DNA of 40,168 nucleotides. Origin: Przondovirus KP32i192. Shown one piece after another: positions 1 to 40,168 of this stretch. The notes under the pieces are model-generated. The model made no database searches and was not told the origin of the DNA. It saw nothing but the letters and a program-made list of their open reading frames with translations. The stretch lies in sequence record OZ035748.1, one strand, 5' to 3'. The translations under genes and the position numbers were made by a program. Each line of letters begins with the position of its first letter. The first letter of the stretch is position 1.

Positions 1-26
1 ACTGGAAGAAAGCTAATAAGGAGTAA
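1..26 (+). CDS. Holin (T7 gp17.5-like), 3' end of the gene that begins at 39991; window is a circular permutation
   Basis: Bases 1-26 read tgg aag aaa gct aat aag gag taa in frame with the ORF running off the window end at 40168; joined product is 67 aa and ends WKKANKE like T7 gp17.5. Confidence 0.75.
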
Positions 27-29
27 CAT

Positions 30-287
30 ATGGACCTGATTAAGTTCCTCGAAATGTTAGACACTGAGATGGCTCAGCAGATGCTCATGGACCTGAAGAA
101 CCCAGAGAAGCGAACCCCTCAGCTGTACAACGCCATTGGTAAACTACTGGAGCGCCATAAGTTCCAAATCTCTAAGCTGACCCCTGACGTTAACATCTTG
201 GGCGGACTGGCTGAGGGTCTGGAGGCTTACAACTCCAAGGTGGGTGCTGATGGTCTGACAGACGACGATAAGTTCACCCTACAGTGA
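30..287 (+). CDS. Terminase small subunit / DNA maturation protein A (T7 gp18-like)
   Basis: 85-aa ORF; strong similarity to recalled T7 gp18 (FLEMLDT..AQ.ML.DL...PQLYNAI.KLL.RHKFQI.KL.PDV.ILGGLA...GLTDDD); RBS aaggag upstream. Confidence 0.85.
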   Translation: MDLIKFLEMLDTEMAQQMLMDLKNPEKRTPQLYNAIGKLLERHKFQISKLTPDVNILGGLAEGLEAYNSKVGADGLTDDDKFTLQ

Positions 288-326
288 TATACTCAAGGTA
301 CTACTATATGTAGTGCCTTTATGGAT
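288..326 (+). promoter_or_regulatory. RNase III-type processing hairpin (R18.5-like)
   Basis: ctcAAGGTACTACtatatGTAGTGCCTTtatg: 10-bp stem with one G-U pair, flanked by conserved ctcaagg / cctttatg motifs shared with four other sites in the window. Confidence 0.55.
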
Positions 327-383
327 GTCATTGCACTACGCTAGGCGTTCCTACGTGAAATCTGAGAAACAACGGGAGGCATT

Positions 384-830
384 ATGCTGGAGTTCACAAA
401 GAGAATCGTCCCGTATCTTGTGGCTATCATGGTGTTTGCCTTCGGGTGGCACTTGGGTTCGCAATCTACGGACGCTAAATGGAAGGAGGAAGTACAGAAT
501 GAGTACGTTAAGAAGCAAACGGCTAGAGCTGAAACTCAGAAAGCGATTGACGCAGTATCGGCTAAGTACCAAGCAGACCTTGAGGGGCTGGAGGGCAGCA
601 CTGATAGGGTTATTGCTGATTTGCGTAGCGACAATAAGCGGCTGCGCGTCAGAGTCAAACCTACCAGTGTCACCGCAGGACCAGACGGTCGATGCCTCGT
701 TGATGGTTCCGTCGAACTACACGAAGCAACTGCTCGAAGTCTTATCGCAATAACCCAGAAGGCCGACCTCAAAGAGAAGGCCCTACAGGACACTATTCGC
801 AAGCTACAGAGGAAAGGAGGTGAACATTGA
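384..830 (+). CDS. i-spanin (Rz-like, T7 gp18.5-like)
   Basis: 148-aa ORF with N-terminal TM segment; near-identical blocks to recalled T7 gp18.5 ([31 protein letters not shown]). Confidence 0.85.
499..753 (+). CDS. o-spanin (Rz1-like, T7 gp18.7-like) embedded in +1 frame inside the i-spanin gene
   Basis: Internal Met of the 313..753 ORF; product MSTLRSKR...[19 protein letters not shown] has signal peptide plus lipobox (ISGC) and matches recalled T7 gp18.7. Confidence 0.7.
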   Translation: MSTLRSKRLELKLRKRLTQYRLSTKQTLRGWRAALIGLLLICVATISGCASESNLPVSPQDQTVDASLMVPSNYTKQLLEVLSQ

Positions 831-2584
831 GTAACTCTCAGCAAGCCAAGAACGCCTTAATCATTGCGCAACTGAAGGGTGACTTTGTCGCCTTTCTCTT
901 CGTGCTCTGGAAGGCCCTGAACCTGCCGGAACCAACCAAGTGTCAAATCGACATGGCCAAGTGCCTGGCGAACCCAAAGAACAAGAAGTTTATCCTTCAG
1001 GCTTTCCGTGGTATCGGGAAGTCATTCATCACGTGTGCGTTCGTAGTGTGGACCCTTTGGCGTGACCCTCAGTTAAAGATACTGATTGTCTCAGCCTCAA
1101 AGGAACGTGCGGACGCTAACTCCATCTTCATCAAGAACATCATCGACTTGTTGCCTTTCCTGAGTGAGCTTAAGCCTCGCCCCGGTCAGCGTGACTCCGT
1201 GATTAGCTTTGATGTAGGCCCTGCCAAGCCGGACCACAGCCCGTCAGTTAAGTCTGTGGGTATTACGGGTCAGCTTACTGGTAGCCGTGCCGATATCATC
1301 ATTGCGGATGACGTGGAGATTCCCGGTAACTCTGCGACTCAAGGTGCTCGTGAGAAACTCTGGACGCTGGTTCAGGAGTTCGCTGCACTGTTGAAACCCC
1401 TGCCGACTAGCCGTGTTATCTATCTGGGTACCCCTCAGACCGAGATGACGCTCTACAAGGAACTTGAGGACAACCGTGGGTACTCCACCATCATTTGGCC
1501 TGCGCAGTATCCTCGCTCCAAAGAGGAAGACCTGTACTATGGCGACCGACTGGCACCGATGCTCCGCAGTGAGTACGATGAGGACAAAGAGGGTCTCAGC
1601 AGCCAACCTACCGACCCGGTTCGATTCGACTCCATGGACCTTCAGGAGCGTGAGGTGGAATACGGTAAGGCTGGCTACACGCTTCAGTTCATGCTCAACC
1701 CGAACCTTAGTGACGCCGAGAAGTATCCTCTACGCCTCCGTGACGCTATCGTGTGCGGTCTACAGATGGACAAGGCCCCAATGCATTACCAGTGGTTGCC
1801 GAATCGTCAGAACCGCAATGAGGAGCTTCCTAACGTGGGCATGAAGGGTGACGAGATTTACTCATTCCATACGGCATCCAGTAACACTGGTACGTATCAG
1901 GGTAAGATTCTGGTCATCGACCCAAGTGGTCGCGGTAAGGATGAGACTGGCTGGTGCGTACTGTACACCCTCAACGGCTACATCTACCTGATGGACGCTG
2001 GCGGCACTCGCGGTTACGAAGAGAAGTCCCTTGAGTTCCTCGCTAAGAAAGCAAAACAGTGGCAGGTTCAGACTGTGGTCTTCGAGAGTAACTTCGGTGA
2101 CGGTATGTTCGGTAACGTCTTCCAGCCTGTGCTCCTGAAGCATCACCCAGCGCAGCTCGAAGAGATTCGTGCTCGTGGTATGAAAGAGGTACGTATCTGC
2201 GATACCCTTGAGCCTGTACTGGCAAGTCACCGCTTGGTCATCCGCGATGAGGTAATCCGACAGGACTACCAGACGGCACGGGACGCAGACGGTAAGCACG
2301 CTCTGAAGTACAGCCTGTTCTACCAGATGACCCGTATGAGCCGTGAGAAGGGTGCTGTGGCACACGATGACCGACTTGATGCATTAGCATTGGGTGTCGA
2401 GTTCCTACGCTCTACGATGCAGCAGGACGCTGTGAAGATAGAGGCTGAGGTACTTCAGGAGTTCTTGGAGCACCACATGGAGAAGCCCCTGAGTAACATC
2501 TCCCAGTTCCGGGTCACCAGTAGCAACGGTGTGGACATCCGATGGGAAGACGACGGGGACGACTCTATGTTCATCGCATGGTGA
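827..2584 (+). CDS. Terminase large subunit / DNA maturation protein B (T7 gp19-like), TTG start
   Basis: 585-aa ORF collinear with recalled T7 gp19 ([25 protein letters not shown], ATPase and nuclease blocks); start is TTG 6 nt after aaggagg. Confidence 0.9.
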
Positions 2585-2664
2585 TTATGCAAGGATTGTG
2601 CATAAGGATTCATTAGGCCACGGAAGGCCACTTTGAGGAAACTCCATGTATAACAGACACTTGG

Positions 2665-2687
2665 AATTAGGGCACACTATAGGGAGA
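2665..2687 (+). promoter_or_regulatory. Phage RNAP promoter (phiOR-like, right end)
   Basis: AATTAGGGCACACTATAGGGAGA, full match to the window consensus; +1 G at 2682. Confidence 0.75.
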
Positions 2688-2828
2688 GACCCTTGAAGAC
2701 TTACTATAAGACAACTTAAAGATTCATTCATATAGTTATTCACTTTAAGTCTCCTTAAAGGTAGAGGGTAGTGATGATAATATCACCCTCTCACTACAAG
2801 ACACTAAGAGCCAACATAAGGAGGACCT

Positions 2829-2978
2829 ATGCGCTTATTGTTAACCTTACTGCGCCATAGGACTACTTGGCGATTTCTGCTGGTACTTGCTGGTGCCCTT
2901 GGGGCTTCACTGGTTACTCAGCAGCAACTCAGTGGACTGGAGACTCTCGTGTGCTCTCTACTCACTTGTAGCGATTAG
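2829..2978 (+). CDS. Small hydrophobic protein (gp19.5-like by position)
   Basis: 49-aa ORF with aaggagg RBS 8 nt upstream; hydrophobic; lies between terminase gene and genome end as gene 19.5 does in T7. Confidence 0.4.
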   Translation: MRLLLTLLRHRTTWRFLLVLAGALGASLVTQQQLSGLETLVCSLLTCSD

Positions 2979-3039
2979 GGTCTTCCTGACGCGCTAGGGA
3001 TTCCGTAGTGATGCTTATCAGCATACACCACTCCATCCC

Positions 3040-3440
3040 TCTATAGTCAATACTTAAAGTTAACCTTAGGTGATTCACTGGGTCTACCTACGGGTCTATG
3101 CACTGACCTGAGGACTACCTGAGGTTACCTTTAAGAATTTTACATAAAGTTCTGAGTGTACATCTCACAGTTTACACTTTTGGTCATCCCCCCCGGTACC
3201 CCTCCAGTTCACCCAAAGTAACCATGGGTACCCCCCTCTTTACCTTCAGTTTAACCTTGGGTGGTACCTTGGGAGTCCTTAGGTGATACTATATGTTGTG
3301 GTGTGGGTGACCTGAGGATACTATATGTTGATGTCTCTGTGTCCCTATCTGTTGGCCCTCTTTAAGTATCCACTGAGTACCACCTGAGGTTAGACCTGAG
3401 GTAATACCGGAGACCATATACCTTAGGTTAACCATGCGGC
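3040..3440. repeat. Array of short CCT(T/G)(A/G)GG heptamer repeats flanking the terminal-repeat region
   Basis: At least 9 copies of ccttagg / cctgagg / ccttggg, plus a 20-bp imperfect direct repeat (ccttaggtgatactatatgttg at 3277-3298, cctgaggatactatatgttg at 3311-3330); analogous to the short repeats near T7 genome ends. Confidence 0.5.
3163..3350. repeat. Putative direct terminal repeat (single collapsed copy) with predicted physical left end near 3163
   Basis: TCTCACAG at 3163-3170 matches the recalled T7 left-end sequence; TCTCTGTGTCCCTATCTGTT at about 3334-3353 matches the conserved block near the inner edge of the T7 terminal repeat; boundaries inferred. Confidence 0.35.
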
Positions 3441-3492
3441 CATCTGGTGAGTCATCACTATAGGGCTATTGGTGGTCATTGTCAATCAATCC

Positions 3493-3515
3493 TATTAGGA
3501 CACACTATAGGGAGA
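3493..3515 (+). promoter_or_regulatory. Phage RNAP promoter (phiOL-like, left end)
   Basis: TATTAGGACACACTATAGGGAGA; +1 G at 3510. Confidence 0.65.
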
Positions 3516-3594
3516 CACTTAAAGTATTACTTAGGGACCATCACCATAAAGATCACCATCACTATAGGTCTAACTAAAAGTTTAACTTTAAGTG

Positions 3595-3623
3595 TTGACA
3601 TTCAGATTCCGTTATGAGACATT
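3595..3623 (+). promoter_or_regulatory. Candidate host sigma70 early promoter (A1-like)
   Basis: -35 TTGACA (3595-3600), 17-bp spacer, weak -10 GACATT (3618-3623); position and flanks resemble T7 A1. Confidence 0.35.
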
Positions 3624-3726
3624 AGCAACCGTTGAGAGACACAACGCTACCAACCACTAGCATACTTCGAGTTATCTGGTTAGACTGATGGTCTCAAGTA
3701 GTCATCAACCGGACATACGAAAGTGG

Positions 3727-3755
3727 TTGACTCAACGATGAATAAGTAGTAAGAT
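3727..3755 (+). promoter_or_regulatory. Host sigma70 early promoter (A2-like)
   Basis: -35 TTGACT (3727-3732), 17-bp spacer, -10 TAAGAT (3750-3755); same hexamers as recalled T7 A2. Confidence 0.55.
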
Positions 3756-3854
3756 GCACCACAGATTCACGAAGTACCGCTAGGCAACTAGCATTGCTCT
3801 TTAACAATATGGATTAGTCAAGCTGATATGTACACCATGATAATAGTGTTTAAC

Positions 3855-3925
3855 TAGTGGTTACATTCAGGTCTCTGGCAAGGTACGTCCTGTCACCCTG
3901 AGAGTAGCCACAATGATAACCACTA
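3855..3925 (+). promoter_or_regulatory. Candidate long-range stem-loop in gene 0.3 leader (R0.3-like)
   Basis: TAGTGGTTA (3855-3863) is perfectly complementary to TAACCACTA (3917-3925), 9-bp stem enclosing 53 nt, immediately upstream of the gene 0.3 RBS. Confidence 0.3.
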
Positions 3926-3946
3926 ATCAACTGAAGGATATACATT

Positions 3947-4414
3947 ATGATTTTCACGAAAGAACCAGCCAACAAAGTATTCGTATTTGTTACTGCATAC
4001 CGTGGCCATGAGTCGCAGGAAGTAAACGAGAAGATGCTCAAGGGTCTCATTAAGACCATTCGCACCTATCCGGGAGCATACGGCAACATTCGTGATGAAC
4101 ATGTACAGGGCTGCTTTAAAGAAGCTGGTATGCCTGAGGCAACGCAAGAGCGCACGCTTAAAGTTGAGTGTACTGAGAAGCAAGCCGCAGAGTTGACGTG
4201 GCTGGCCTGTAAGACCTACTCGCAAGATGCTGTGCTGGTGGTGAACTCACAGACCCATACAGCCGCGCTATGGTCTATCACAAGCGTGGGAGAGTATCCG
4301 CAAGCATTTCCGATGCTCAAAGAGGATGCACTAGGTGGCACGCTGCAACAAGTGGACGCACCAAAGGGCGAATGCTATTCAAGCATCGACGGGCAATACT
4401 GGGAGGTGGTCTAA
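3947..4414 (+). CDS. SAM hydrolase/lyase (T3 gp0.3-like SAMase), anti-restriction
   Basis: 155-aa first early gene; N-terminus MIFTKEPA..VFVFV and overall collinearity with recalled T3 SAMase; not Ocr-like (not acidic). Confidence 0.7.
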   Translation: MIFTKEPANKVFVFVTAYRGHESQEVNEKMLKGLIKTIRTYPGAYGNIRDEHVQGCFKEAGMPEATQERTLKVECTEKQAAELTWLACKTYSQDAVLVVNSQTHTAALWSITSVGEYPQAFPMLKEDALGGTLQQVDAPKGECYSSIDGQYWEVV

Positions 4415-4560
4415 TGATTAATTATGGCCTCACTCAGGCAGACATTAGGCATTACCGCTGGTTGCTCTCACTAGGTAAACCGCACGACTACCTAATGATT
4501 CACCTAGCGCAAACCTACCGCACACGTAAGGTAATGTATGATAACCCTGTTCGTAATTAG
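4414..4560 (+). CDS. Hypothetical early protein (48 aa)
   Basis: ATG overlaps SAMase stop (TAATG); gggagg RBS 7 nt upstream; position of T7 genes 0.4-0.6. Confidence 0.4.
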   Translation: MINYGLTQADIRHYRWLLSLGKPHDYLMIHLAQTYRTRKVMYDNPVRN

Positions 4561-4735
4561 TGTGTACGCCATGATTGTCCTGTACTTTGTGCGGGACTTT
4601 CGTAAGGGTCTCAAGGTACACAAGGCATCATTCAGTTACATGAAGTGGGGCATACTGCCTCGCTTTACTGTACGGCTACCAAATGGCCGCTTTAAGGCTA
4701 ACAAGGTAGGTATTTTCTACATCGCAACCCATTGA
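4538..4735 (+). CDS. Hypothetical early small membrane protein (65 aa)
   Basis: ORF with aagg RBS; N-terminal hydrophobic segment ITLFVISVYAMIVLYFV. Confidence 0.4.
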   Translation: MITLFVISVYAMIVLYFVRDFRKGLKVHKASFSYMKWGILPRFTVRLPNGRFKANKVGIFYIATH

Positions 4736-4760
4736 CAAACCACCATAAGGAAACAACCTA

Positions 4761-5777
4761 ATGAACTACACCGACATGCAAGAACGCTTAGACGTCATCC
4801 GTAACCTGCCAATCTGTGAACTCGACAAGCGCCAGCCGCTGCTGGTAGCACTCATCGCGGACATTGTGAACTGCGAGACGTCCGATGGTGACGACACGGA
4901 TAGCGATTGGGGTCTGGAGCGACAGGACTACTGGCAAACCCTGAAGATTAAGGCCAAAGACGCTGGGTTTAACCTGCTGGGCAATGGACACTTCAGCGCA
5001 GCGTTTAAGCACGAGCTGCTACCGGGTAGGGTCATTAAGGTTGGCTTTAAGAAAGAGGATTCAGGGGCCGCATACGTGGCTTTCTGCCGGATGCACCAAG
5101 GCCGGGCAGGCATCCCTAACGTCTATCACGTAGCGCGTCACGCTGGGTGCTATACGGTGGTACTTGATGAGTTGGAACCATGCAAGCGCAGCAGTAACCA
5201 CTTGCACGACCACTACGCAGACCTCGCGTATTATTTTGTCGAGTGTGACTATGAGCCTGAGGAGCACCACGAGAAGGACTTACCGTTCATTGAGACGTGC
5301 CAGATGATTCGGGACTTCTTCTGTGGGATTGCATCCTTCGATATGCACAGCGGTAACATCATGTTCACCAAAGACGGCAAGCCAGTGATTACCGACCCGG
5401 TGTCATTCTCGGCGGACCGGGACCGTGAGCCTTTCTCACTGGAACCTGAGGAGCTACTTGCTGAGATTGAGCAGATAGCGCACGACAAGATGATTGAACG
5501 CTGCAAGCGCAACAAGGCTAAGCGTGACCCGAACGGAGCGCTGCGCATCGCACGGCGTAAGGCCAATAAGGAGCGTCGAGCACGCCGTAAGGCGCACGCT
5601 AGGTGGCGTAAGGAGCGTGAACGTGAACGTGAGCAGTATCACGTAGACGCCCTAAAGTTAGACCTAGCGAGTGTCGAGGAGCGCATTCTGGCGTGGCAAA
5701 TGGGTCCCGGCCTAGCGATACAAATGGGCAAGCCGTTGCCAATCGACAACTACCTTCAGGGTAGACTTATGGGTTAG
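4761..5777 (+). CDS. Serine/threonine protein kinase and host transcription shutoff protein (T7 gp0.7-like)
   Basis: 338-aa ORF; long identical blocks with recalled T7 gp0.7 (LPICELDKRQ, GNGHFSAA, RVIKVGFKKEDSGAAY, GIASFDMHSGNIMF). Confidence 0.85.
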   Translation: MNYTDMQERLDVIRNLPICELDKRQPLLVALIADIVNCETSDGDDTDSDWGLERQDYWQTLKIKAKDAGFNLLGNGHFSAAFKHELLPGRVIKVGFKKEDSGAAYVAFCRMHQGRAGIPNVYHVARHAGCYTVVLDELEPCKRSSNHLHDHYADLAYYFVECDYEPEEHHEKDLPFIETCQMIRDFFCGIASFDMHSGNIMFTKDGKPVITDPVSFSADRDREPFSLEPEELLAEIEQIAHDKMIERCKRNKAKRDPNGALRIARRKANKERRARRKAHARWRKEREREREQYHVDALKLDLASVEERILAWQMGPGLAIQMGKPLPIDNYLQGRLMG

Positions 5778-5791
5778 CAAGGTGTATCTTA

Positions 5792-5813
5792 GGTGTCTCC
5801 CGCAAGAGGCACC
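5792..5813 (+). promoter_or_regulatory. RNA hairpin in gene 1 leader (candidate R1 processing site)
   Basis: GGTGTCTC ccgcaa GAGGCACC: 8-bp stem (one G-U), 6-nt loop, no following U-tract so not an intrinsic terminator. Confidence 0.3.
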
Positions 5814-5846
5814 GATAGATAAACTTTATTCACAAAGAGGCACACA

Positions 5847-8567
5847 ATGAACGCATTAAACATTGCACGTAATGACTTCTCAGAGATTGAACTGGCCGCT
5901 ATTCCGTACAACATCCTCAGCGAGCACTACGGGGACAAGCTGGCACGTGAGCAGTTAGCACTGGAGCATGAGGCGTACGAGCTGGGTGAGCAGCGTTTCC
6001 TGAAGATGTTAGAACGTCAGGTGAAAGCTGGAGAGTTCGCTGACAACGTGGCCGCTAAGCCGCTGGTCCTAACGTTGCACCCGCAGCTGACCAAGCGCAT
6101 TGACGATTGGAAGGAGGAACAAGCAAACGCTCGTGGTAAGAAGCCTCGCGCATACTACCCGATTAAGCACGGCGTGTCCTCAGAGCTGGCCCTCAGTATG
6201 GGCGCTGAGGTACTCAATGAGAAGCGCGGAGTGTCCAGTGAGGCAATCGCACTGCTGACCATTAAGGTCGTCTTAGGGACGCTCACAGACGCCTCCAAGG
6301 CAACCATCCAGCAGGTATCCTCTCAGTTAGGCAAGGCTCTTGAGGATGAGGCCCGCTTTGGTCGTATCCGTGAGCAGGAAGCCGCCTACTTCAAGAAGAA
6401 CGTAGCGGACCAGCTGGACAAGCGTGTAGGCCACGTGTACAAGAAGGCTTTCATGCAGGTCGTCGAGGCCGATATGATTTCCAAAGGGATGCTGGGTGGG
6501 GACAACTGGTCCAGCTGGAAAACTGACGAGCAGATGCATGTGGGGACCAAGCTGCTTGAGCTACTCATCGAGGGCACTGGTCTGGTGGAAATGACCAAGA
6601 ACAAGATGGCCGATGGCTCCGACGATGTGACCAGTATGCAGATGGTCCAGCTGGCTCCGGCCTTTGTGGAACTCCTGAGCAAACGAGCGGGAGCACTCGC
6701 AGGTATCAGCCCGATGCACCAACCATGCGTAGTCCCTCCGAAACCTTGGGTGGAGACCGTAGGCGGTGGCTACTGGTCAGTCGGTCGCCGCCCGCTGGCG
6801 CTGGTTCGTACCCACTCCAAGAAGGCACTGCGCCGCTACGCAGACGTGCACATGCCCGAGGTATACAAAGCGGTAAACCTCGCGCAAAACACGCCGTGGA
6901 AGGTGAACAAGAAGGTGCTGGCGGTAGTCAACGAGATTGTCAACTGGAAGCACTGCCCGGTTGCTGACGTCCCGGCGATTGAACGCGAAGAGTTACCACC
7001 ACGCCCGGACGATATCGACACCAACGAGGTGTCACGCAAGGCATGGCGCAAGGAGGCCGCAGCGGTCTACCGTAAGGACAAGGCCCGCCAGTCTCGCCGT
7101 TTGTCAATGGAGTTCATGGTCGCACAGGCCAACAAGTTCGCTAACCACAAGGCCATCTGGTTCCCGTACAACATGGACTGGCGCGGACGTGTGTACGCTG
7201 TGAGCATGTTCAACCCGCAGGGTAACGACATGACCAAGGGTATGCTGACGCTGGCCAAGGGTAAGCCAATCGGTCTCGACGGGTTCTACTGGCTGAAGAT
7301 TCACGGTGCAAACTGTGCAGGCGTCGACAAGGTTCCATTCCCTGAGCGCATCAAGTTCATCGAAGAGAACGAGGGTAACATTCTGGCGAGCGCAGCAGAC
7401 CCGCTGAATAACATTTGGTGGACACAGCAAGATTCACCGTTCTGTTTCTTGGCGTTCTGCTTTGAGTACGCAGGCGTTAAACATCATGGCCTGAATTACA
7501 ACTGCTCGCTGCCGCTGGCATTCGATGGGTCATGCTCTGGGATTCAGCACTTCAGCGCGATGCTCCGCGATTCCATCGGTGGTCGTGCGGTTAACCTGCT
7601 GCCTTCTGATACTGTGCAGGATATCTACAAGATTGTGGCCGACAAGGTTAACGAGGTGCTTCACCAGCACGCTGTCAACGGGTCTCAGACGGTGGTCGAG
7701 CAGATTGCTGATAAAGAGACTGGCGAGTTCCGCGAGAAAGTAACACTGGGTGAGTCCGTGCTGGCTGCTCAGTGGTTGCAATATGGCGTGACCCGTAAGG
7801 TGACTAAGCGTTCGGTCATGACGTTGGCGTACGGTTCCAAAGAGTTCGGCTTCCGCCAGCAAGTTCTGGAAGACACCATTCAGCCTGCTATTGACAATGG
7901 CGAGGGCTTGATGTTTACGCACCCTAACCAAGCGGCTGGCTACATGGCTAAGCTGATTTGGGACGCTGTGACCGTGACCGTAGTGGCCGCTGTCGAGGCA
8001 ATGAACTGGCTGAAGTCTGCCGCTAAGCTGCTGGCTGCTGAAGTCAAGGACAAGAAGACCAAAGAGGTGCTGCGTAAGCGCTGCGCAATCCACTGGGTAA
8101 CACCCGATGGCTTCCCGGTGTGGCAGGAGTACCGCAAGCAGAACCAAGCGCGCCTGAAGCTGGTCTTCCTCGGGCAGGCCAACGTCAAGATGACGTATAA
8201 CACTGGGAAGGACTCAGAGATTGATGCCCACAAGCAGGAATCCGGCATAGCTCCTAACTTTGTTCACTCACAGGACGGTAGTCACCTACGCATGACCGTA
8301 GTACACGCCAACGAGGTCTACGGGATTGACTCCTTCGCACTCATTCACGACTCCTTCGGGACCATTCCGGCTGACGCTGGGAATCTCTTTAAGGCAGTCC
8401 GTGAGACGATGGTCAAGACCTACGAGGACAACGATGTGATCGCTGACTTCTACGACCAGTTCGCTGACCAGCTGCACGAGTCTCAACTGGACAAGATGCC
8501 AGCTGTTCCGGCCAAAGGTGACCTGAATCTGCGAGACATCTTGAAGTCAGACTTCGCGTTTGCGTAA
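5847..8567 (+). CDS. Single-subunit DNA-dependent RNA polymerase (T7 gp1-like)
   Basis: 906-aa ORF; collinear with recalled T7 RNAP along the full length, including the active-site region (LPLAFDGSCSGIQHFSAMLRD) and C-terminal FAFA. Confidence 0.95.
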   Translation: MNALNIARNDFSEIELAAIPYNILSEHYGDKLAREQLALEHEAYELGEQRFLKMLERQVKAGEFADNVAAKPLVLTLHPQLTKRIDDWKEEQANARGKKPRAYYPIKHGVSSELALSMGAEVLNEKRGVSSEAIALLTIKVVLGTLTDASKATIQQVSSQLGKALEDEARFGRIREQEAAYFKKNVADQLDKRVGHVYKKAFMQVVEADMISKGMLGGDNWSSWKTDEQMHVGTKLLELLIEGTGLVEMTKNKMADGSDDVTSMQMVQLAPAFVELLSKRAGALAGISPMHQPCVVPPKPWVETVGGGYWSVGRRPLALVRTHSKKALRRYADVHMPEVYKAVNLAQNTPWKVNKKVLAVVNEIVNWKHCPVADVPAIEREELPPRPDDIDTNEVSRKAWRKEAAAVYRKDKARQSRRLSMEFMVAQANKFANHKAIWFPYNMDWRGRVYAVSMFNPQGNDMTKGMLTLAKGKPIGLDGFYWLKIHGANCAGVDKVPFPERIKFIEENEGNILASAADPLNNIWWTQQDSPFCFLAFCFEYAGVKHHGLNYNCSLPLAFDGSCSGIQHFSAMLRDSIGGRAVNLLPSDTVQDIYKIVADKVNEVLHQHAVNGSQTVVEQIADKETGEFREKVTLGESVLAAQWLQYGVTRKVTKRSVMTLAYGSKEFGFRQQVLEDTIQPAIDNGEGLMFTHPNQAAGYMAKLIWDAVTVTVVAAVEAMNWLKSAAKLLAAEVKDKKTKEVLRKRCAIHWVTPDGFPVWQEYRKQNQARLKLVFLGQANVKMTYNTGKDSEIDAHKQESGIAPNFVHSQDGSHLRMTVVHANEVYGIDSFALIHDSFGTIPADAGNLFKAVRETMVKTYEDNDVIADFYDQFADQLHESQLDKMPAVPAKGDLNLRDILKSDFAFA

Positions 8568-8577
8568 GGTCTCGGGC

Positions 8578-8600
8578 AATTAGGGCACACTATAGGGAAC
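8578..8600 (+). promoter_or_regulatory. Phage RNAP promoter (phi1.1A-like)
   Basis: AATTAGGGCACACTATAGGGAAC; transcript starts with a 10-bp hairpin GGGAACCTTCG/CGAGGGTTCC. Confidence 0.7.
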
Positions 8601-8660
8601 CTTCGAATGACCGAGGGTTCCATTACTTAAAGTCTTAACTTAAAGAATACTTAAAGAGGC
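8595..8660 (+). other. Candidate primary replication origin region (promoter plus AT-rich tacttaaag repeats)
   Basis: 5' hairpin followed by three copies of (t/a)acttaaag at 8624, 8637, 8648; in T7 the primary origin is the promoter/AT-rich region just downstream of gene 1. Confidence 0.3.
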
Positions 8661-8665
8661 ACACC

Positions 8666-9226
8666 ATGACTTACTCAATCGTTGTAACCATCTTGTTAAT
8701 CGTATTAATCATCCTGTTAGTAAGGGCCGTCACACGACTCGGTGCCTGCGAGTACGCCCTTGAGAAGCAAGCCAAGAGCAACGAGGAGTACACAGACGGC
8801 TTGCACGATAAGGTCTGCCGCCTGTCTGACGATAAGGTATCACTCAATAAGCAGGTGCGGTGGTTAGAGAGCGAGCTTGAACACGAGAAGCAGAAGGTAC
8901 GCGATGTGAACGAACTACGGGAACGCCAGCGGGACCGCATGAAGTTCCTCCGCAAGTCCCTCAAGGAAGCACAAGATGAGCTGATGATGGTCTCCGACCT
9001 GATTCACGTTAAGTTCACCGCTGTGTTGCCGGACGGTACCCACTCCAAGACGCTCTTTAAGTTAGGACTTGGGCCGTGTGGCCTGCACGTTAAGTCCCTC
9101 CGCTGGACCGAGCTGGATGACCGCTATCTGATAGACCAGCTGTGCACCAACGGTGAGCGCAAGCAGTTCGTTTATTACAAGAGCGAAGTAGTGGGACGCA
9201 TCGAGTTCCGCCACGGTAAGATTTAA
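8666..9226 (+). CDS. Hypothetical protein, N-terminal TM helix plus coiled coil (no T7 counterpart; gene 1.05 position)
   Basis: 186-aa ORF with aagagg RBS; hydrophobic N-terminus IVVTILLIVLIILLV followed by charged heptad-rich region; no similarity to T7 proteins I can recall. Confidence 0.6.
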   Translation: MTYSIVVTILLIVLIILLVRAVTRLGACEYALEKQAKSNEEYTDGLHDKVCRLSDDKVSLNKQVRWLESELEHEKQKVRDVNELRERQRDRMKFLRKSLKEAQDELMMVSDLIHVKFTAVLPDGTHSKTLFKLGLGPCGLHVKSLRWTELDDRYLIDQLCTNGERKQFVYYKSEVVGRIEFRHGKI

Positions 9227-9247
9227 TTAGGACCCACTATCAGGAAC
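9225..9247 (+). promoter_or_regulatory. Degenerate phage promoter-like element (phi1.1B position)
   Basis: AATTAGGACCCACTATCAGGAAC: upstream -17 to -2 matches consensus but -1/+1 is C/A instead of A/G. Confidence 0.35.
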
Positions 9248-9248
9248 A

Positions 9249-9285
9249 TACTCAAGGTCATCACGTTTGGTGGCCTTCATGAATG
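9249..9285 (+). promoter_or_regulatory. RNase III-type processing hairpin (R1.1-like)
   Basis: tactcAAGGTCATCACgtttGGTGGCCTTcatgaatg; shares ctcaaggtca / tggcctt motifs with sites at 288, 9773, 16538. Confidence 0.55.
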
Positions 9286-9315
9286 TCCCTTAATATCACA
9301 ATCAGGAGCAACACC

Positions 9316-9492
9316 ATGTATCAGAACACAATCAACTTTGAGCGCACCCGTGAACGTCAGCAGACAGAGGGTTACATCCCTAAGGGCCGCAAGCTGAACA
9401 AGACGAAGCGCGGTGGTGGGGTGAAGGGTTCCTTCCGTAACGCTAAGGGTGACAGCGTTGTTAACCAAGAGAAATACTTCGTGGGAGCGTAA
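9316..9492 (+). CDS. gp1.1-like small basic protein
   Basis: 58-aa product contains KGRKLNKTKR as in recalled T7 gp1.1; aggag RBS 7 nt upstream. Confidence 0.55.
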   Translation: MYQNTINFERTRERQQTEGYIPKGRKLNKTKRGGGVKGSFRNAKGDSVVNQEKYFVGA

Positions 9493-9495
9493 CAA

Positions 9496-9753
9496 ATGGC
9501 TACGGAAAAAAGATGGCTTTTCGATGGGAGCACCTCACAATGGTCTCGTTTAGGAGCAGCGGAGCGTAGACTACTGGATACGACAGGACTGCACGTGGTC
9601 ATGCTTGACGACCCATTCACTAACACCGTGCTGTTCAACGTATTCGAGCCACGCGGGTCACTTCTAATAAGTAAGCGGTTCAGCCACTGGTCGATTGACT
9701 CAGCGTCAGACTGGCTGGCAAAACTCGCAGCTGACTACTCAAGCTGGCAGTAA
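9496..9753 (+). CDS. gp1.2-like protein (possible host dGTPase inhibitor) by size and position
   Basis: 85-aa ORF, same length and position as T7 gp1.2; sequence similarity weak. Confidence 0.45.
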   Translation: MATEKRWLFDGSTSQWSRLGAAERRLLDTTGLHVVMLDDPFTNTVLFNVFEPRGSLLISKRFSHWSIDSASDWLAKLAADYSSWQ

Positions 9754-9774
9754 TTAGGACACACTATAGGCAGA
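9752..9774 (+). promoter_or_regulatory. Phage RNAP promoter (phi1.3-like)
   Basis: AATTAGGACACACTATAGGCAGA; +1 G at 9769. Confidence 0.65.
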
Positions 9775-9809
9775 CTCAAGGTCATCGGATTCCGGTGGCC
9801 TTTATGATT
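9773..9809 (+). promoter_or_regulatory. RNase III-type processing hairpin (R1.3-like)
   Basis: gactcAAGGTCATCGGattCCGGTGGCCTTtatgatt: 11-bp stem with two G-U pairs. Confidence 0.55.
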
Positions 9810-9853
9810 GCTTATTGCACACTAAATGAACACTACACTTCGGAGACATCGTC

Positions 9854-10918
9854 ATGATGAACATTAAGACTAATCCATTTAAGGCTGTATCATTCGTTCG
9901 CTCTGCTATCGAGAAGGCGCTGGAGACTTCCGGTTACCTCATCGCAGACACTAAGCACGATGGTGTGCGCGGTAACATCTGCGTAGACAACACGGCCAAC
10001 GCAGCGTGGCTCAGCCGGGTCTCCAAGACCATTCCGGCCCTTGAGCATCTCAACGGTTTCGACCAGCGCTGGAATAAGTTACTGAAAGATGACCGCTGGA
10101 TTTTCCCGGATGGCTTCATGCTTGATGGCGAACTCATGGTCAAAGGCGTGGACTTCAACACCGGGTCTGGTCTACTGCGCACCAAGTACCTGAAAGAAAA
10201 GAACATGAAGTTTGACACCCGCGCCCTTCTTGACTTCGATAAGAAGCTGTGGGGGACCAAAACTCCATTCCGCCTACAGACGGGCAAACTCAAAGTTGTC
10301 CTCTATGATATCATTCCGCTTGACATTATCGAGTCCGGTGATGACTACAACGTGATGACCCTCCTCCGCCTTGAGCACGTCAAGGTAGCCTTACCAGTCC
10401 TGCAAGACCACTTCCCTGAAGTCGAGTGGTGCCTCTCGGAGTCCCATGAAGTTTACGACATGGACGAACTCGATGCGCTTTACCGACAGAAACGCGAAGA
10501 AGGTCACGAAGGTCTGGTGGTTAAGGACCCTCAGGGCATCTACAAGCGCGGTAAGAAGTCCGGCTGGTGGAAACTGAAGCCAGAGAACGAGGCTGACGGT
10601 GTCGTTGTGGGACTCAACTGGGGAACTCCCGGTCTTGCCAACGAGGGCAAGGTGATTGGCTTCGAGGTACTCCTTGAGTCTGGTCGCGTGGTATCCGCCA
10701 ACAACATCTCTCAGGCACTTATGGAGGAGTTTACCTCCGCATGGCTCAACGCTAACACCGAGGACTTCACAGGAACAACAGCGCCAAACCCAGTGAACCC
10801 TTACGAAGGCTGGGCGTGCCAAATCAAGTACATGGAGGAAACTCCAGATGGCTCTCTGCGTCACCCGTCGTTCGACAAATGGCGTGGCACTGAGGCTGAC
10901 CCGACCATAAAGATGTAA
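9854..10918 (+). CDS. ATP-dependent DNA ligase (T7 gp1.3-like)
   Basis: 354-aa ORF; N-terminus MMNIKTNPFKAVSFV and adenylation motif KYDGVRG match recalled T7 ligase. Confidence 0.92.
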   Translation: MMNIKTNPFKAVSFVRSAIEKALETSGYLIADTKHDGVRGNICVDNTANAAWLSRVSKTIPALEHLNGFDQRWNKLLKDDRWIFPDGFMLDGELMVKGVDFNTGSGLLRTKYLKEKNMKFDTRALLDFDKKLWGTKTPFRLQTGKLKVVLYDIIPLDIIESGDDYNVMTLLRLEHVKVALPVLQDHFPEVEWCLSESHEVYDMDELDALYRQKREEGHEGLVVKDPQGIYKRGKKSGWWKLKPENEADGVVVGLNWGTPGLANEGKVIGFEVLLESGRVVSANNISQALMEEFTSAWLNANTEDFTGTTAPNPVNPYEGWACQIKYMEETPDGSLRHPSFDKWRGTEADPTIKM

Positions 10919-13277: not shown

Positions 13278-13733
13278 ATGGCTAAGGTTCAATTCACCAA
13301 GCGACAGGAGACCTCTCAGATTTTCGTTCACTGTTCAGCCACCAAGGCAACCATGGACGTAGGTGTCCGCGAGATTCGCCAGTGGCATAAAGAGCAGGGC
13401 TGGCTTGACGTTGGGTATCACTTCATCATCCGTCGTGATGGTACCGTTGAGGCGGGCCGTGACCAAGATGCTGTTGGTTCACACGTCAAGGGATACAACT
13501 CGACCTCTGTCGGTGTATGTCTGGTGGGCGGTATCGACGCCAAGGGTAACCCTGAGGCAAACTTCACTCCAGCCCAGATGCAGTCGCTGCGTTCACTGCT
13601 GGTAGAACTGAAGGTGCAATACTCTGGGGCCGTTCTGATGGCACACCATGACGTAGCGCCTAAAGCCTGCCCGAGCTTCGACCTGAAGCGCTGGTGGGAG
13701 AAGAACGAACTGGTCACTTCTGACAGGGGCTGA
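13278..13733 (+). CDS. Lysozyme / N-acetylmuramoyl-L-alanine amidase (T7 gp3.5-like)
   Basis: 151-aa product from internal ATG with aaaggag RBS; FVHCSATK...VGVREIRQWHKEQGWLDVGYHFII and C-terminal ACPSFDLKRWWEKNELVTSDRG match T7 lysozyme. Confidence 0.92.
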   Translation: MAKVQFTKRQETSQIFVHCSATKATMDVGVREIRQWHKEQGWLDVGYHFIIRRDGTVEAGRDQDAVGSHVKGYNSTSVGVCLVGGIDAKGNPEANFTPAQMQSLRSLLVELKVQYSGAVLMAHHDVAPKACPSFDLKRWWEKNELVTSDRG

Positions 13734-13734
13734 C

Positions 13735-13842
13735 ATGGTTACGCAGGCTCTCATCATATTCGGATTGCCAATCCTGATAGTTGGTACGCTTTACTGTACC
13801 AACAAGGAGTGGTTCAGCGACGGACAAGAGTAGATAATTAGG
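13735..13842 (+). CDS. Tiny hydrophobic ORF (35 aa)
   Basis: Hand-translated; ATG overlaps lysozyme stop; no clear RBS. Confidence 0.2.
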
Positions 13843-24331: not shown

Positions 24332-25363
24332 ATGGCTAACATGCAAGGTGGACAGCAGCTCGGTACTAACCAAGGTAAAGGTCAATCCGCAGCAGACAAG
24401 CTGGCGCTATTCCTGAAAGTATTCGGCGGTGAAGTCCTGACCGCATTCGCTCGTACCTCTGTGACCTCTAACCGTCACATGCAGCGTCAAATCAGCTCCG
24501 GTAAGTCCGCACAGTTCCCTGTGATTGGTCGCACCAAGGCTGCTTACCTGCAACCGGGCGAGTCTCTGGATGACAAACGCAAAGACATCAAGCACACCGA
24601 GAAGACCATTAACATTGATGGCCTGCTGACCGCTGACGTGCTGATTTACGACATCGAAGACGCGATGAACCACTATGACGTGCGCTCCGAGTACACCTCT
24701 CAGATTGGTGAATCTCTGGCGATGGCAGCTGATGGCGCGGTTCTGGCTGAGCTGGCTGGTCTGGTTAACCTCGCTGATTCCGTCAACGAGAACATCGCTG
24801 GTCTGGGCAAACCGTCCCTGCTGGAAGTTGGTGCTAAGGCTGACCTGACCGACCCGGTTAAACTGGGCCAAGCGGTTATCGCACAGCTGACCATTGCTCG
24901 TGCGGCTCTGACCAAGAACTACGTCCCGGCTAACGACCGTACGTTCTACACCACCCCGGACGTGTACTCTGCGATTCTGGCAGCTCTGATGCCTAACGCT
25001 GCGAACTATGCGGCTCTGATTGACCCTGAGCGTGGTTCTATCCGTAACGTGATGGGCTTCGAAGTCGTTGAGGTTCCGCACCTGACCGCTGGTGGTGCTG
25101 GTGATGACCGCCCGGACGAAGATGCAGAAGCGACCAACCAGAAGCACGCCTTCCCGGCAACTGGTGGTAAAGTCAACAAAGAGAACGTTGTGGGCCTGTT
25201 CCAGCACCGTTCCGCTGTCGGTACCGTCAAGCTGAAAGATCTGGCTCTGGAGCGTGCTCGTCGTACCGAGTATCAGGCTGACCAGATTGTTGCTAAGTAC
25301 GCGATGGGTCACGGTGGTCTGCGTCCAGAATCTGCTGGTGCACTGGTTTTCACAGCAGCCTAA
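24332..25363 (+). CDS. Major capsid protein 10A (T7 gp10A-like)
   Basis: 343-aa ORF; near-identical to recalled T7 gp10A over long blocks. Confidence 0.95.
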   Translation: MANMQGGQQLGTNQGKGQSAADKLALFLKVFGGEVLTAFARTSVTSNRHMQRQISSGKSAQFPVIGRTKAAYLQPGESLDDKRKDIKHTEKTINIDGLLTADVLIYDIEDAMNHYDVRSEYTSQIGESLAMAADGAVLAELAGLVNLADSVNENIAGLGKPSLLEVGAKADLTDPVKLGQAVIAQLTIARAALTKNYVPANDRTFYTTPDVYSAILAALMPNAANYAALIDPERGSIRNVMGFEVVEVPHLTAGGAGDDRPDEDAEATNQKHAFPATGGKVNKENVVGLFQHRSAVGTVKLKDLALERARRTEYQADQIVAKYAMGHGGLRPESAGALVFTAA

Positions 25364-25641
25364 GCGTAAATACCTTTAGTGCTCGGACGGTGACTCCGTC
25401 TGAGTACGAGGTACAGACTGTGACCATTGCTGGTGATTCACTTAAGGTGACACTTGATGGGCTGGAGGGAGTAACGGACTGGTCAACCCTTGAGGTAACT
25501 TATGGTACTTCCGGGATTGCCAGCCACACTCGCCGGACCAACACGCTGTACTTCAAAGGAATCGCTGTGGGCGAAACCCTAGTGACTGTCGGCTTTGACG
25601 GGTCTGAAAGGAAGTCCTTTAAGCTGGTCGTGACTAATTAA
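24332..25641 (+). CDS. Minor capsid protein 10B via programmed -1 frameshift at GGTTTTC (25345-25351)
   Basis: Slippery heptamer G GTT TTC in the 10A zero frame, 4 codons before the 10A stop; -1 frame is open from there to 25641 and continues as the 25390..25641 ORF. Confidence 0.55.
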
Positions 25642-36019: not shown

Positions 36020-36059
36020 CCCGACGGTTTCCCTTCTCATCCAACTAAAGGAGGTCACA

Positions 36060-38393
36060 ATGGACCAAGACATTAAAACAGTCATTCAGTACCCAGTAGG
36101 GGCCACTGAGTTCGACATCCCGTTCGACTACCTGTCCCGCAAGTTTGTCCGCGTGTCGTTGGTGTCAGACGACAACCGCAGACTGCTGAGCAACATCACT
36201 GAGTACCGCTACGTGTCTAAGACCAGAGTGAAACTGCTGGTAGCAACCACTGGTTTCGACCGTGTAGAGATTCGTCGGTTCACATCTGCGTCAGAGCGAG
36301 TGGTGGACTTTAGTGACGGTTCTGTATTACGCGCCAACGACCTTAACGTCTCACAGCTGCAATCTGCACATATCGCCGAAGAAGCACGCGATGCGGCACT
36401 TCTGGCAATGCCGGAGGATGATGCTGGCAACCTAGACGCCCGTAACAGAAAGATTGTTCGACTGGCTCCCGGAGAGACTGGTACAGACGCTGTCAACAAG
36501 AATCAACTGGACACAACCTTAGGTGAGGCTGGCGGTATTCTCAGTGAAGTTAAGGACCTCCAGAAAGACATTGAGGATTACCTACAGAACTGGGGAGATG
36601 ACACCACAGCTATTCGCGGCGTTCTCTGGGTATACAACCAAGGGTCCGCAGTGGGCGGTGAGACCTCCTTCGTGATTACCAAAGAGGGGCCTGTCCTTGC
36701 GGTTCCGTACATCGAGATTAACGGCAGCCGTCAATACCGTGGGTGGCACTACGAGTATGACTTAGGGTCCAAGACAATCACGCTGGCGAAACCGCTTTCT
36801 GCTGGGGATTTGGTCGTATGCACCACCGCTGAGACTACACTGCCACTGGCGGATTCACTCGCAGGTCCGACTGGTGCTTCTCAGATTGGTACCGCCAACG
36901 GGCTGAATGTACAGATTGCACTGGACAATCTACGCTCAGGGGTTAACGTTCTGGACTTTATGACCTTTGCTGAGCGAGCCGCTGTCCTGAACTACACAGG
37001 AACCAATGACAACTCTGAGGCATTCCGAAAGGCATTCGCCACCGGGACACGCCAAATAATTGTCCCTCCGGGAAGATATCACGTAAAAGACGTTGTAATA
37101 CCCGCTAAGGTGAAACTGTTTGGTACGTACTCCTACAAGCCTTATAACGTGACAAGTGATGCATCCTTTGGTACAGACGGTACGATTATTCGTAAAGTGG
37201 CTGGCGCAGATAACATGTTTCTGTGGAATACTGCATGTGCCGCTGAGGGTGTGATGTTCGATGGTCGTGACCGCACGTCCCCAGCCATTCAGTCACAGTC
37301 TGGTGGTAAAATAACTGTAGGGTTCTTCAAGTGCGGGTTCTATCGCTTCGACCGAGTAGGTAACCGCCGGGGCGCATACATCGGGTGCTCCTTCCAGTTC
37401 TGTAACTTCAACCAGAACAACATTGGGATTTACAATACGGTAGATGGGAACCACATCGGGTGTACCATCAACGCCAACAAGTCCCACGGTGTTATGCTCG
37501 AAACAGGCGCGAACTCCAACACGTTCACTAACTGTCGAAACGAGTGGAACGAAGGTGACAACTGGAACTTCTACGGTGCTACTTCGATTCAGGTAATCAA
37601 CGAACTGTGCGACCGTGCGTTCGGCTATGGGTTCCGTATCAGCAACTCCTCGGTGACACTGATTAACGTCAACATTAGGCGTTCTGCGAGAACAGCCGCA
37701 TCGGGGGCAGCAAGCGCTCAGATTTACTTTGAGTCGTCTACCCTCAAGATGATTGGGGTGAACAGCTCCGTGGGCGGTGATGACACTGGCGGTTCTATCA
37801 CTGAGCCTTCGCCTGATTACTTCTTCAGGATGGCAGGTACCAGCGAGGGTCGCCTTGAGATTAGTGACAGTCGCCTCACAGGCTATACTGTTGGGCTAAT
37901 CTCGGGTACAGCACGTCCTTCAGTTATCCGTGTGATAAACTCTCCGGGTTGGGAGGACACGATTAACGAGGGGGTCGCTCGCATATCAGGAGGCAGGCCG
38001 TACATTGGTACAATGCCAACAGCGACTGGTCCGGCAAACGTTAGCCCAGCTGTATTGGGACTGTCCTGTGGTGGAGTAAACACCTACGATAACGACATGT
38101 TTGATATTCACCTGACTATCCGAAATACCAATAACGGAGGCCATAATGGTGCAATCCTCACTGTGTTGCTTTACCGTGAGGGCGGAGCCGCTCGTGCGAC
38201 AATCGTACGAGTAGACAGTCGGTCCAATGCCGTGGGTGAGGGAGATGTGAATAGCACCTCAGCAGACCCTCAGCAGACCTATCAAGTGTCCGTGGAGGTT
38301 ACGTCAAACGATGCGTCTACTTTCAACCTACTGGTCTCCACCAAGTCGGACAACAACGCATCCTACCGCTTCAGGGCGAAAGTTAAACCATAA
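36060..38393 (+). CDS. Tailspike / tail fiber: T7 gp17-like N-terminal anchor fused to a beta-helix (capsule depolymerase-like) domain
   Basis: First ~150 aa match T7 gp17 N-terminal domain (FDIPFDYLSRKFV...RLVDF.DGS.LRA.DLNV.Q); the rest is unrelated to T7 and has a pectate-lyase-like motif (LDFMTFAERAAVLNYTGTNDNSEAFRKAFATG...IIVPPGRYHV) and Gly/Asn/Ser/Thr-rich repeats. Confidence 0.8.
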   Translation: MDQDIKTVIQYPVGATEFDIPFDYLSRKFVRVSLVSDDNRRLLSNITEYRYVSKTRVKLLVATTGFDRVEIRRFTSASERVVDFSDGSVLRANDLNVSQLQSAHIAEEARDAALLAMPEDDAGNLDARNRKIVRLAPGETGTDAVNKNQLDTTLGEAGGILSEVKDLQKDIEDYLQNWGDDTTAIRGVLWVYNQGSAVGGETSFVITKEGPVLAVPYIEINGSRQYRGWHYEYDLGSKTITLAKPLSAGDLVVCTTAETTLPLADSLAGPTGASQIGTANGLNVQIALDNLRSGVNVLDFMTFAERAAVLNYTGTNDNSEAFRKAFATGTRQIIVPPGRYHVKDVVIPAKVKLFGTYSYKPYNVTSDASFGTDGTIIRKVAGADNMFLWNTACAAEGVMFDGRDRTSPAIQSQSGGKITVGFFKCGFYRFDRVGNRRGAYIGCSFQFCNFNQNNIGIYNTVDGNHIGCTINANKSHGVMLETGANSNTFTNCRNEWNEGDNWNFYGATSIQVINELCDRAFGYGFRISNSSVTLINVNIRRSARTAASGAASAQIYFESSTLKMIGVNSSVGGDDTGGSITEPSPDYFFRMAGTSEGRLEISDSRLTGYTVGLISGTARPSVIRVINSPGWEDTINEGVARISGGRPYIGTMPTATGPANVSPAVLGLSCGGVNTYDNDMFDIHLTIRNTNNGGHNGAILTVLLYREGGAARATIVRVDSRSNAVGEGDVNSTSADPQQTYQVSVEVTSNDASTFNLLVSTKSDNNASYRFRAKVKP

Positions 38394-38403
38394 GGAGAAC
38401 CAC

Positions 38404-39978
38404 ATGTTAGACAGACTGAATCAGCCGAAAGGCTCAACCATTGGTGTGCTCAAGGATGGGCGCACTATCCAAGAGGCTATTGATGACTTGTATGTGTTTA
38501 AGGATTCTCAAGGATTCATAAACGTGGACATGCAGACTGGTGCCACCCTTGAGGAGAAGCTGCGCAATTCTTTTACGATAGCCAATACGCTACTTGTGGG
38601 CGTACGCCTGACGGCTGGTAAGGTATACCCGCTGACTGGCACAACTCCGCTTGAGGTGAACCTAGCTAAGTTCTCGCTGTTCACTTCAGGAGGCCGTGCT
38701 ACGATTGACGCCTCAGAGTTCACTGGGCCGACTGCGTTGTGGATTCACGCCACAGGCTCCTATCCGACACCCATGTATCGAAACACGACCAACTACATGG
38801 AGTCCATCGAGCTTGTGGGTGGGCTTAAGGCTGGCGTCGACGGGTGGACTTGGGGTAACCGTGGGATGACCACCGGAACCGAGTACAACGGTCAGTGTAT
38901 AATCCGTGGGTGCAGCGTTTACAAGTTCGACAACTGCATCAAATGTACTGACTCGTCTTGGCGCTACAAGGTATCTGACTGCATGATCTCTACGGGAATC
39001 ACCTCTGTGTTCAACGCCCCTGCTGGACTGATTGACTCCGGCGAGTCCATAACCTTCAGCGACACTCAGTTCTCCGACTCGAACGGGGCTAAGTTCATCA
39101 TTGCGTGTGCAAACTTCAGTGTAGGCATGTCCGGCACAAGTGTGCTCAATACCCCGGTTGTTATCTCTGGGAATGGTGCTTCACTGCTCATCGACGGCAT
39201 GGGGAACAACGAGAACCCCGGTAAAACTTCTTGGATGCGCTACGTCGAGGTGACTGGAATCGGAGCACGCTTCATCCTACAGTCCTCAACGCTCGTGTGT
39301 AACGGCCCATCTTCTCAGACCAGACCGCTTGTGCTTGTTGGGGCGAAAGCTCGCGCAATCTTCATTGCCGTCAAGTTCCCCGGTAACCTCTATATGTTCC
39401 ATGTGAATAACCCAGAGAAGGTGCGAACATTCTGTGAAGGCGAGGGTATCGTTAAGACAATCGCGTGTACATACGACATTGAATCGGGGGCTGGTAACAT
39501 TCCAGTCCACCGCTCACTTAACCGATTCTACAATAACGGGTTCGAGCAGGACTTGGCTGGATGGGCGCTTAACGTTGGTGGCGACCCAGCACAGACGGCT
39601 ACAATCGTCACGGATGATACCAACAGCGGTGGTAAGGCGGTTAAGGTTGCCTCTCTGGATGGTAAGAGTGTGTTCCTTACCCAGAATGTCAGAGTGTCTT
39701 CTGGAGAGGAGTTTGCATCGTTCGTGGCCTACAAGGTCAATAAGGCGGCATCCGGCTCAACACCGGGTAACCTGACAGTAACCTTTAAGTCCGAGAATGG
39801 TACCACTATCGGTACAGGCTCGACGTCTAACTTCTCGAACACTGTCGGGGCGTGGCAGCAAGGTGGCCTGTTCTGCCGAGGCGTTGCCCCAGTAGGTGCT
39901 GTATCCGCTGAGATATCTCTCCGTGTTCGTGATGGTGCTGAGGTTATCCTTGATGACGTTATCGTAAACTTCTTGTAA
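38404..39978 (+). CDS. Second tailspike / receptor-binding protein lacking the gp17 anchor domain (putative second depolymerase)
   Basis: 524-aa product from ATG with taaggag RBS 10 nt after gp17 stop; no T7 counterpart; Gly/Thr/Ser/Asn/Val-rich composition suggests beta-rich fold. Confidence 0.6.
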   Translation: MLDRLNQPKGSTIGVLKDGRTIQEAIDDLYVFKDSQGFINVDMQTGATLEEKLRNSFTIANTLLVGVRLTAGKVYPLTGTTPLEVNLAKFSLFTSGGRATIDASEFTGPTALWIHATGSYPTPMYRNTTNYMESIELVGGLKAGVDGWTWGNRGMTTGTEYNGQCIIRGCSVYKFDNCIKCTDSSWRYKVSDCMISTGITSVFNAPAGLIDSGESITFSDTQFSDSNGAKFIIACANFSVGMSGTSVLNTPVVISGNGASLLIDGMGNNENPGKTSWMRYVEVTGIGARFILQSSTLVCNGPSSQTRPLVLVGAKARAIFIAVKFPGNLYMFHVNNPEKVRTFCEGEGIVKTIACTYDIESGAGNIPVHRSLNRFYNNGFEQDLAGWALNVGGDPAQTATIVTDDTNSGGKAVKVASLDGKSVFLTQNVRVSSGEEFASFVAYKVNKAASGSTPGNLTVTFKSENGTTIGTGSTSNFSNTVGAWQQGGLFCRGVAPVGAVSAEISLRVRDGAEVILDDVIVNFL

Positions 39979-39990
39979 CACGGAGGTATC

Positions 39991-40168
39991 ATGTTATCCC
40001 TAGACTTCAACAACGAAGTTATCAAGGCGGCTCCCATTGCGGGGGTCGCTGGGGCTGATGGCGTAGCGAGGCTCTTCTGGGGCCTCTCACTCAACGAGTG
40101 GTTCTACGTCGCGGCAATCGCCTACACAGTGGTTCAGATTGGTGCCAAGGTAGTCGACAAAATCATTG
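39991..40168 (+). CDS. Holin (T7 gp17.5-like), 5' part; continues at window positions 1-26
   Basis: MLSLDFNNEVIKAAPIAGVAGADGVARLFWGLSLNEWFYVAAIAYTVVQIGAKVVDKII nearly identical to recalled T7 gp17.5; ORF runs off the window end. Confidence 0.8.
   Translation, partial: MLSLDFNNEVIKAAPIAGVAGADGVARLFWGLSLNEWFYVAAIAYTVVQIGAKVVDKII

Follow-up and report, generated by a model that had tools for sequence, protein, structure and literature searches.

Przondoviruses have linear genomes with terminal repeats, as confirmed by primer walking (PMC10438801), and these repeats were reported to be 180-183 bp long (Elek et al., 2023, Microb Genom, PMC10438801). A concatemer unit carries one copy of the repeat, and the second copy is synthesised at packaging (Elek et al., 2023, PMC10438801). 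The closest relative of the DNA studied here, Klebsiella phage KP32 isolate 192 of the species Przondovirus KP32i192 (NC_047968.1/MH172261.1), has a record of 40,635 bp that is physically oriented and both begins and ends with an exact direct repeat of 181 bp. In T7, the holin gp17.5 (NP_042006) has the C-terminus WKKANKE, and its gene lies at 36344..36547 of 39,937 bp, immediately upstream of the small-terminase gene. The window, by which we mean the whole analysed stretch of 40,168 nucleotides (OZ035748.1), is like KP32 isolate 192 in being colinear with it, in having all 40 genes in common and in carrying a homologous terminal repeat. Unlike that record, the window is rotated by 3,162 bases, holds a single repeat copy and differs by small indels.

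A megablast search with the window returned hundreds of Klebsiella phage relatives. The nucleotide identity to KP32 isolate 192 was 96.95% over 99.5% of the window, giving a product of 96.5%. In ICTV practice, phages with more than 70% nucleotide identity are placed in the same genus and those with more than 95% in the same species. The product lies above both thresholds, and by sequence the window is thus a member of Przondovirus (Studiervirinae), a KP32-type T7-like Klebsiella podophage, and by the usual 95% rule it is of the same species as Przondovirus KP32i192.

The window contains all 40 annotated CDS of NC_047968.1, each a single time, on the + strand and with their order unchanged, in agreement with the preliminary description, which had stated that the T7-type core genes are present once and in order. 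Independent Pfam matches covered SAM lyase, RNAP, ligase, SSB, endonuclease I, amidase, primase/helicase, DNAP, portal, scaffold, capsid, tail tube A, nozzle (tail tube B), gp13, gp14, the gp16 SLT domain, the gp17 N-terminal domain, terS, Rz and terL. The first early gene encodes an S-adenosylmethionine lyase of the T3 gp0.3 type (3947..4414, + strand; PF23780), and a single-subunit RNA polymerase gene was recognised by PF00940 and PF14700. With Pfam at E <= 0.001, there were no matches for the equivalents of gp0.7 kinase, gp1.2, gp6 exonuclease and gp15, and these were assigned by their 88-100% identity to annotated proteins of KP32 isolate 192. The phage promoter ATTAGGrCmCACTAyAGG occurs 12 times on the + strand of the window and not at all on the - strand, and no genes for tRNAs were detected in the window.

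The identity to KP32 isolate 192 was not even along the genome. It was 91-93% in the early region (3347..10731), where the ligase is 82% identical at the protein level, compared with 98-99% in the replication and structural regions, while for the late half the nearest match is Raoultella phage vB_Rp_P25a (98.8%). The lower identity of the early region and the closer late half make up a mosaic pattern, which suggests recombination among przondoviruses. In addition, about 100 bp that are extra relative to KP32 isolate 192 were seen at 13724..13837, just downstream of the amidase gene and upstream of a promoter at 13837. The -1 frame stays open from 25297 to 25641, past the end of the major capsid gene with its stop at 25363, and a heptamer GGTTTTC (G GTT TTC) is located at 25345..25351, as far from that stop as the T7 gene 10 heptamer is from its own. 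A 10B-type product of -1 frameshifting is suggested by this arrangement; in the RefSeq relative, 25390..25641 is instead annotated as a "minor capsid protein" of its own.

The last open reading frame of the window starts with an ATG at 39991 and is still open at the window end after 178 nt. When these 178 nt (39991..40168) were joined to positions 1..26, a continuous frame of 204 nt was obtained, which encodes 67 amino acids and a stop. This had been proposed as a check in the preliminary description, and the coordinates, length and translation given there were correct. The 5' part, on the + strand, contains codons 1-59 and the first base of codon 60 and then runs off the window end. The 3' part (1..26, + strand) contributes the last two bases of codon 60, the residues WKKANKE and the TAA stop. 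Codon 60 itself is therefore split, with its G at 40168 and its AC at 1-2. The joined translation reads MLSLDFNNEVIKAAPIAGVAGADGVARLFWGLSLNEWFYVAAIAYTVVQIGAKVVDKIID up to the junction and WKKANKE followed by the stop after it, and the full protein is MLSLDFNNEVIKAAPIAGVAGADGVARLFWGLSLNEWFYVAAIAYTVVQIGAKVVDKIIDWKKANKE. Only the holin frame, one of the three forward frames, is open across the junction.

The joined protein matched the Pfam family of T7 holins (PF10746) with 112.7 bits (cut-off 25.4) along positions 1-60 of the 61-position profile, and PHROG 920 (holin) with E = 1.1e-32. It is identical to T7 gp17.5 at 58 of 67 residues (87%), both proteins being 67 aa long and collinear with zero gaps, and it shares the WKKANKE C-terminus with the T7 protein. 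The identity to the holin of KP32 isolate 192 is 67/67. The protein includes a hydrophobic stretch, WFYVAAIAYTVVQIGAKVV, as a putative membrane-spanning segment. With the window ends joined, the gene (the equivalent of gene 17.5) is part of the late (class III) region and lies immediately upstream of the small-terminase gene, an order also seen in T7, and a gap of 3 nt separates its stop codon from the terS ATG. The match is far beyond chance, and the joined frame encodes a full-length member of the T7 family of class II holins (PF10746, PHROG 920).

To examine the junction itself, an 848-nt query made of the window end joined to the window start was searched against public records. This sequence was unbroken at 100% identity in MH172261.1/NC_047968.1 and in PQ197425.1, the record of Raoultella phage vB_Rp_P25a. 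Among the records listed, about 30 from Klebsiella phages contained it without a break at 98% identity or more, and 40 public phage records covered 80% or more of its length. The region is annotated in the matching records as tail protein, holin, terminase small subunit and Rz-like spanin. In the alignment to NC_047968.1, window positions 40168 and 1 correspond to the adjacent bases 37292 and 37293, and no base was lost or duplicated at the join. A check for an assembler k-mer duplication revealed no overlap between the two window ends. The seamless joining of the ends and the position of the holin gene across the junction, both claimed in the preliminary description, were thus confirmed.

These data also bear on the view that the window is a true linear fragment, in which the holin gene would really lack its 3' end and an unrelated leftover would make up the first 26 nt. 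Nothing beyond the linear representation itself speaks for it, and it is contradicted by the two pieces rebuilding a protein identical at 67/67 residues to the holin of the relative, by the complete identity of the 848 nt across the join to three independent records, and by the fact that nothing is missing or duplicated relative to NC_047968.1. We regard its probability as negligible. A genuinely truncated holin was therefore rejected, since the junction is contiguous at 100% in three records and falls between adjacent bases in NC_047968.1. The holin gene is intact and ordinary, and its split is an artefact of coordinates, not biology.

The terminase small subunit (gene 18 equivalent; 30..287, + strand) matched PF11123 and PHROG 1351, and its 85 residues are all identical to those of KP32 isolate 192. 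It is followed by an Rz-like i-spanin (gene 18.5 equivalent; 384..830, + strand; PF03245, PHROG 1327). A candidate Rz1-like o-spanin of 84 aa with a TISGC lipobox-like motif (gene 18.7 equivalent; 499..753, + strand) was recognised from sequence alone; it is wholly inside the Rz gene in a different frame and is unannotated in the closest RefSeq relative. The terminase large subunit (gene 19 equivalent; 827..2584, + strand) matched PF22530, PF03237 and PHROG 38. Its start is ambiguous. The longest ORF begins with a TTG at 827 and encodes 585 aa, compared with 586 aa for T7 gp19, and several public records are rotated to that base, while the start annotated in the RefSeq relative maps to 902 and would give 560 aa.

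On the other side of the junction, two receptor-binding genes were found. The first encodes a tail fibre with the T7 gp17 N-terminal domain (36060..38393, + strand; PF03906, PHROG 6518), and the second, a tail spike protein, is the last gene before the holin (38311..39978, + strand; PHROG 4217). In T7 the holin follows the lone tail-fibre gene 17, whereas in the window the second receptor-binding gene is placed between gene 17 and the holin; the gap between holin and terS is 3 nt in the window and 5 nt in T7. The proteins encoded by both receptor-binding genes, like those of holin, terS, Rz and terL, are 100% identical to the proteins of KP32 isolate 192. The second receptor-binding ORF overlaps the tail-fibre gene by 83 nt. 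Since its family matches start at residue 32 and an AAGGAGA ribosome-binding site with an ATG at 38404 is present within the ORF, the true start is probably the ATG at 38404, and the annotated start of the relative is probably 31 codons too long.

To locate the physical DNA ends, the window was compared with the record ends of KP32 isolate 192 and T7. The alignment to the right end of NC_047968.1 stops at window position 3346 and that to the left end starts at 3163, so that the 184 bp between these positions align to both ends. By homology, position 3163 is the left physical end (TCTCACAGTTTAC...) and position 3346 the right physical end (...CTCTGTGTCCCT). In a multiple alignment of this window segment with both ends of KP32 isolate 192 and both ends of T7, the left and right boundaries of the repeat were conserved, the left end being TCTCACAGT(T/G)TAC and the right end CTCTGTGTCCCT. 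The segment 3163..3346 (+ strand) is thus the direct terminal repeat in a single collapsed copy of 184 bp. The closest relative has 181 bp and published repeats have 180-183 bp, and the difference in length is due to small indels inside the repeat. No second copy of it, and no other long direct repeat, was found in the window, where only phage promoters and short matches recur.

The elements flanking the repeat are placed as in T7. To its left are a phage-RNAP promoter recognised by its motif (2666..2688, + strand; phiOR equivalent) and a 49-aa ORF after AAGGAGG (2829..2978, + strand) with the position and length of T7 gene 19.5. To its right, in the place of T7 A0, a leftward sigma-70-type promoter match was seen (3457..3485, - strand; TTGACA-17-TATAGT, 11/12), followed by another phage-RNAP promoter with the same motif (3494..3516, + strand; phiOL equivalent). 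A sigma-70 scan of the end region gave 4 sites compared with 2.4 expected from shuffles, which is uninformative alone. Within the repeat, near its right boundary, there is a short tandem pair GATACTATATGTTG... with 32-nt spacing (3285..3344). Short repeats of the ACCTGAGG and CCTTAGG types are present on both sides of the terminal repeat and resemble the arrays beside the T7 concatemer junction.

By homology to the relatives and from the literature, the packaged DNA would carry the repeat at each of its two ends, and 3163 and 3346 would, by the same homology, be the exact termini in this isolate. The packaged DNA should then start at window position 3163 and have a length of 40,168 + 184 = about 40,352 bp. 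In this physical frame the holin occupies 36829..37032. The preliminary description had called the window a complete genome. This is right in that a whole genome unit is present, although, with a single terminal-repeat copy, it falls 184 bp short of the packaged DNA. Its account was also incomplete, as the physical ends were left unlocated there; they are placed here at 3163 and 3346.

The closure of the window into a circle without gap or overlap would also be seen if the genome were truly circularly permuted by headful packaging, or circular, and had no fixed ends. However, a collapsed repeat yields an identical circular assembly. The window contains a terminal repeat of the T7 type with both end sequences matching those of T7 and KP32 isolate 192, together with T7-type terS and terL genes, the record of the closest relative has the exact 181-bp repeat at both ends, and przondoviruses were found by primer walking to be linear with terminal repeats (PMC10438801). 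A permuted or circular genome is therefore extremely unlikely. Taken more broadly, packaging without fixed T7-type ends, whether by permutation or with termini elsewhere, or, as a weaker departure, an early region (91-93% compared with 98-99%) that marks a recent recombinant and a distinct within-species lineage, is still very unlikely.

The opening point of the record was then considered in relation to the terminase genes. The terS ATG is at window position 30, so that the record starts 29 nt upstream of it. The same position was observed for a terminase start codon in five of five consecutive ENA records (OZ035734.1-OZ035738.1), which belong to four genera. OZ035735.1 (Vectrevirus LI10P3) has a small terminase there (ORF 30..329, PHROG 891), and OZ035737.1 (Wifcevirus WFH) has a large terminase starting at 30 (PF04466). 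OZ035734.1 and OZ035738.1 (both Kagunavirus) each have a 416-aa ORF at 30..1280 with a GGFGSGKT Walker A motif, which we read from the sequence as a candidate large terminase. In OZ035736.1 (Przondovirus NAN33P6), the terS ATG is also at 30, and position 13 of the query aligned to position 13 of the record. The first 12 nt of that record differ from the window, since the C-terminus of its holin is another one and stops short of the cut; that holin is thus unsplit, whereas the holin of the window is cut. The split in the window arises because no more than 3 nt separate the holin stop codon from the terS ATG and the cut is 29 nt upstream of this ATG.

Other matching records start exactly at the terS ATG (query 30 aligned to record position 1) or at the terL start (query 827 aligned to record position 1), which indicates that records are commonly rotated to a terminase gene. 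The recurrence of the offset of 30 suggests re-orientation by a fixed rule, and the start of the window was most likely set as the terminase gene start minus 29 nt, as judged from the coincidence of coordinates alone. A literature search found no paper on the ENA series OZ035734-OZ035738 or its rotation rule. The choice of the start point by a pipeline would fit this pattern.

The preliminary description had proposed instead that the assembly was circularised and opened arbitrarily, i.e., that the assembler or the depositor linearised a circular contig at random and by chance inside the holin. The circularisation was supported by our data. Random linearisation is in keeping with general experience, and many public Przondovirus records are opened at unrelated positions. 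However, the chance of a random cut at that very nucleotide is about 1 in 40,000, the offset recurs as a terminase start codon at 30 in all five consecutive ENA records, and rotation to a terminase gene is seen in other records. The opening was thus probably not arbitrary, and we consider a random cut unlikely.

Taken together, the window is very probably a unit-length Przondovirus genome with a collapsed repeat, in which a rule-based re-linearisation cut an intact holin gene. The virion DNA would be a linear molecule ending on both sides in a direct terminal repeat of about 184 bp. The two repeat copies would be merged into one during assembly, so that the sequence would close as a circle; a unit of the replicative concatemer would have this structure as well. 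A fixed rule would then have opened the circle again 29 nt upstream of the small-terminase start codon, and the cut would land 26 nt inside the holin gene as a side effect of the rotation.

The practical consequences are simple. A gene caller working on the linear coordinates will miss or truncate the holin, and the warning in the preliminary description that linear-coordinate annotation would split or lose this gene was justified. Comparisons of length and synteny will carry an error made up of the 3.2-kb rotation and a single 184-bp repeat. The biologically correct genome would be obtained by re-orienting the sequence to position 3163 and adding the second repeat copy. More generally, records rotated with the fixed 29-nt offset are systematically prone to split upstream genes, since the offset can clip a closely abutting gene.

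The split holin is therefore an ordinary, well-documented artefact of assembly and coordinates in a known phage species, with no new biology. The artefact is identical to that described for przondovirus assemblies with collapsed terminal repeats and a mid-genome opening (Elek et al., 2023, PMC10438801). Unlike those cases, the start of the window was apparently set deliberately relative to the terminase gene and not left by the assembler.
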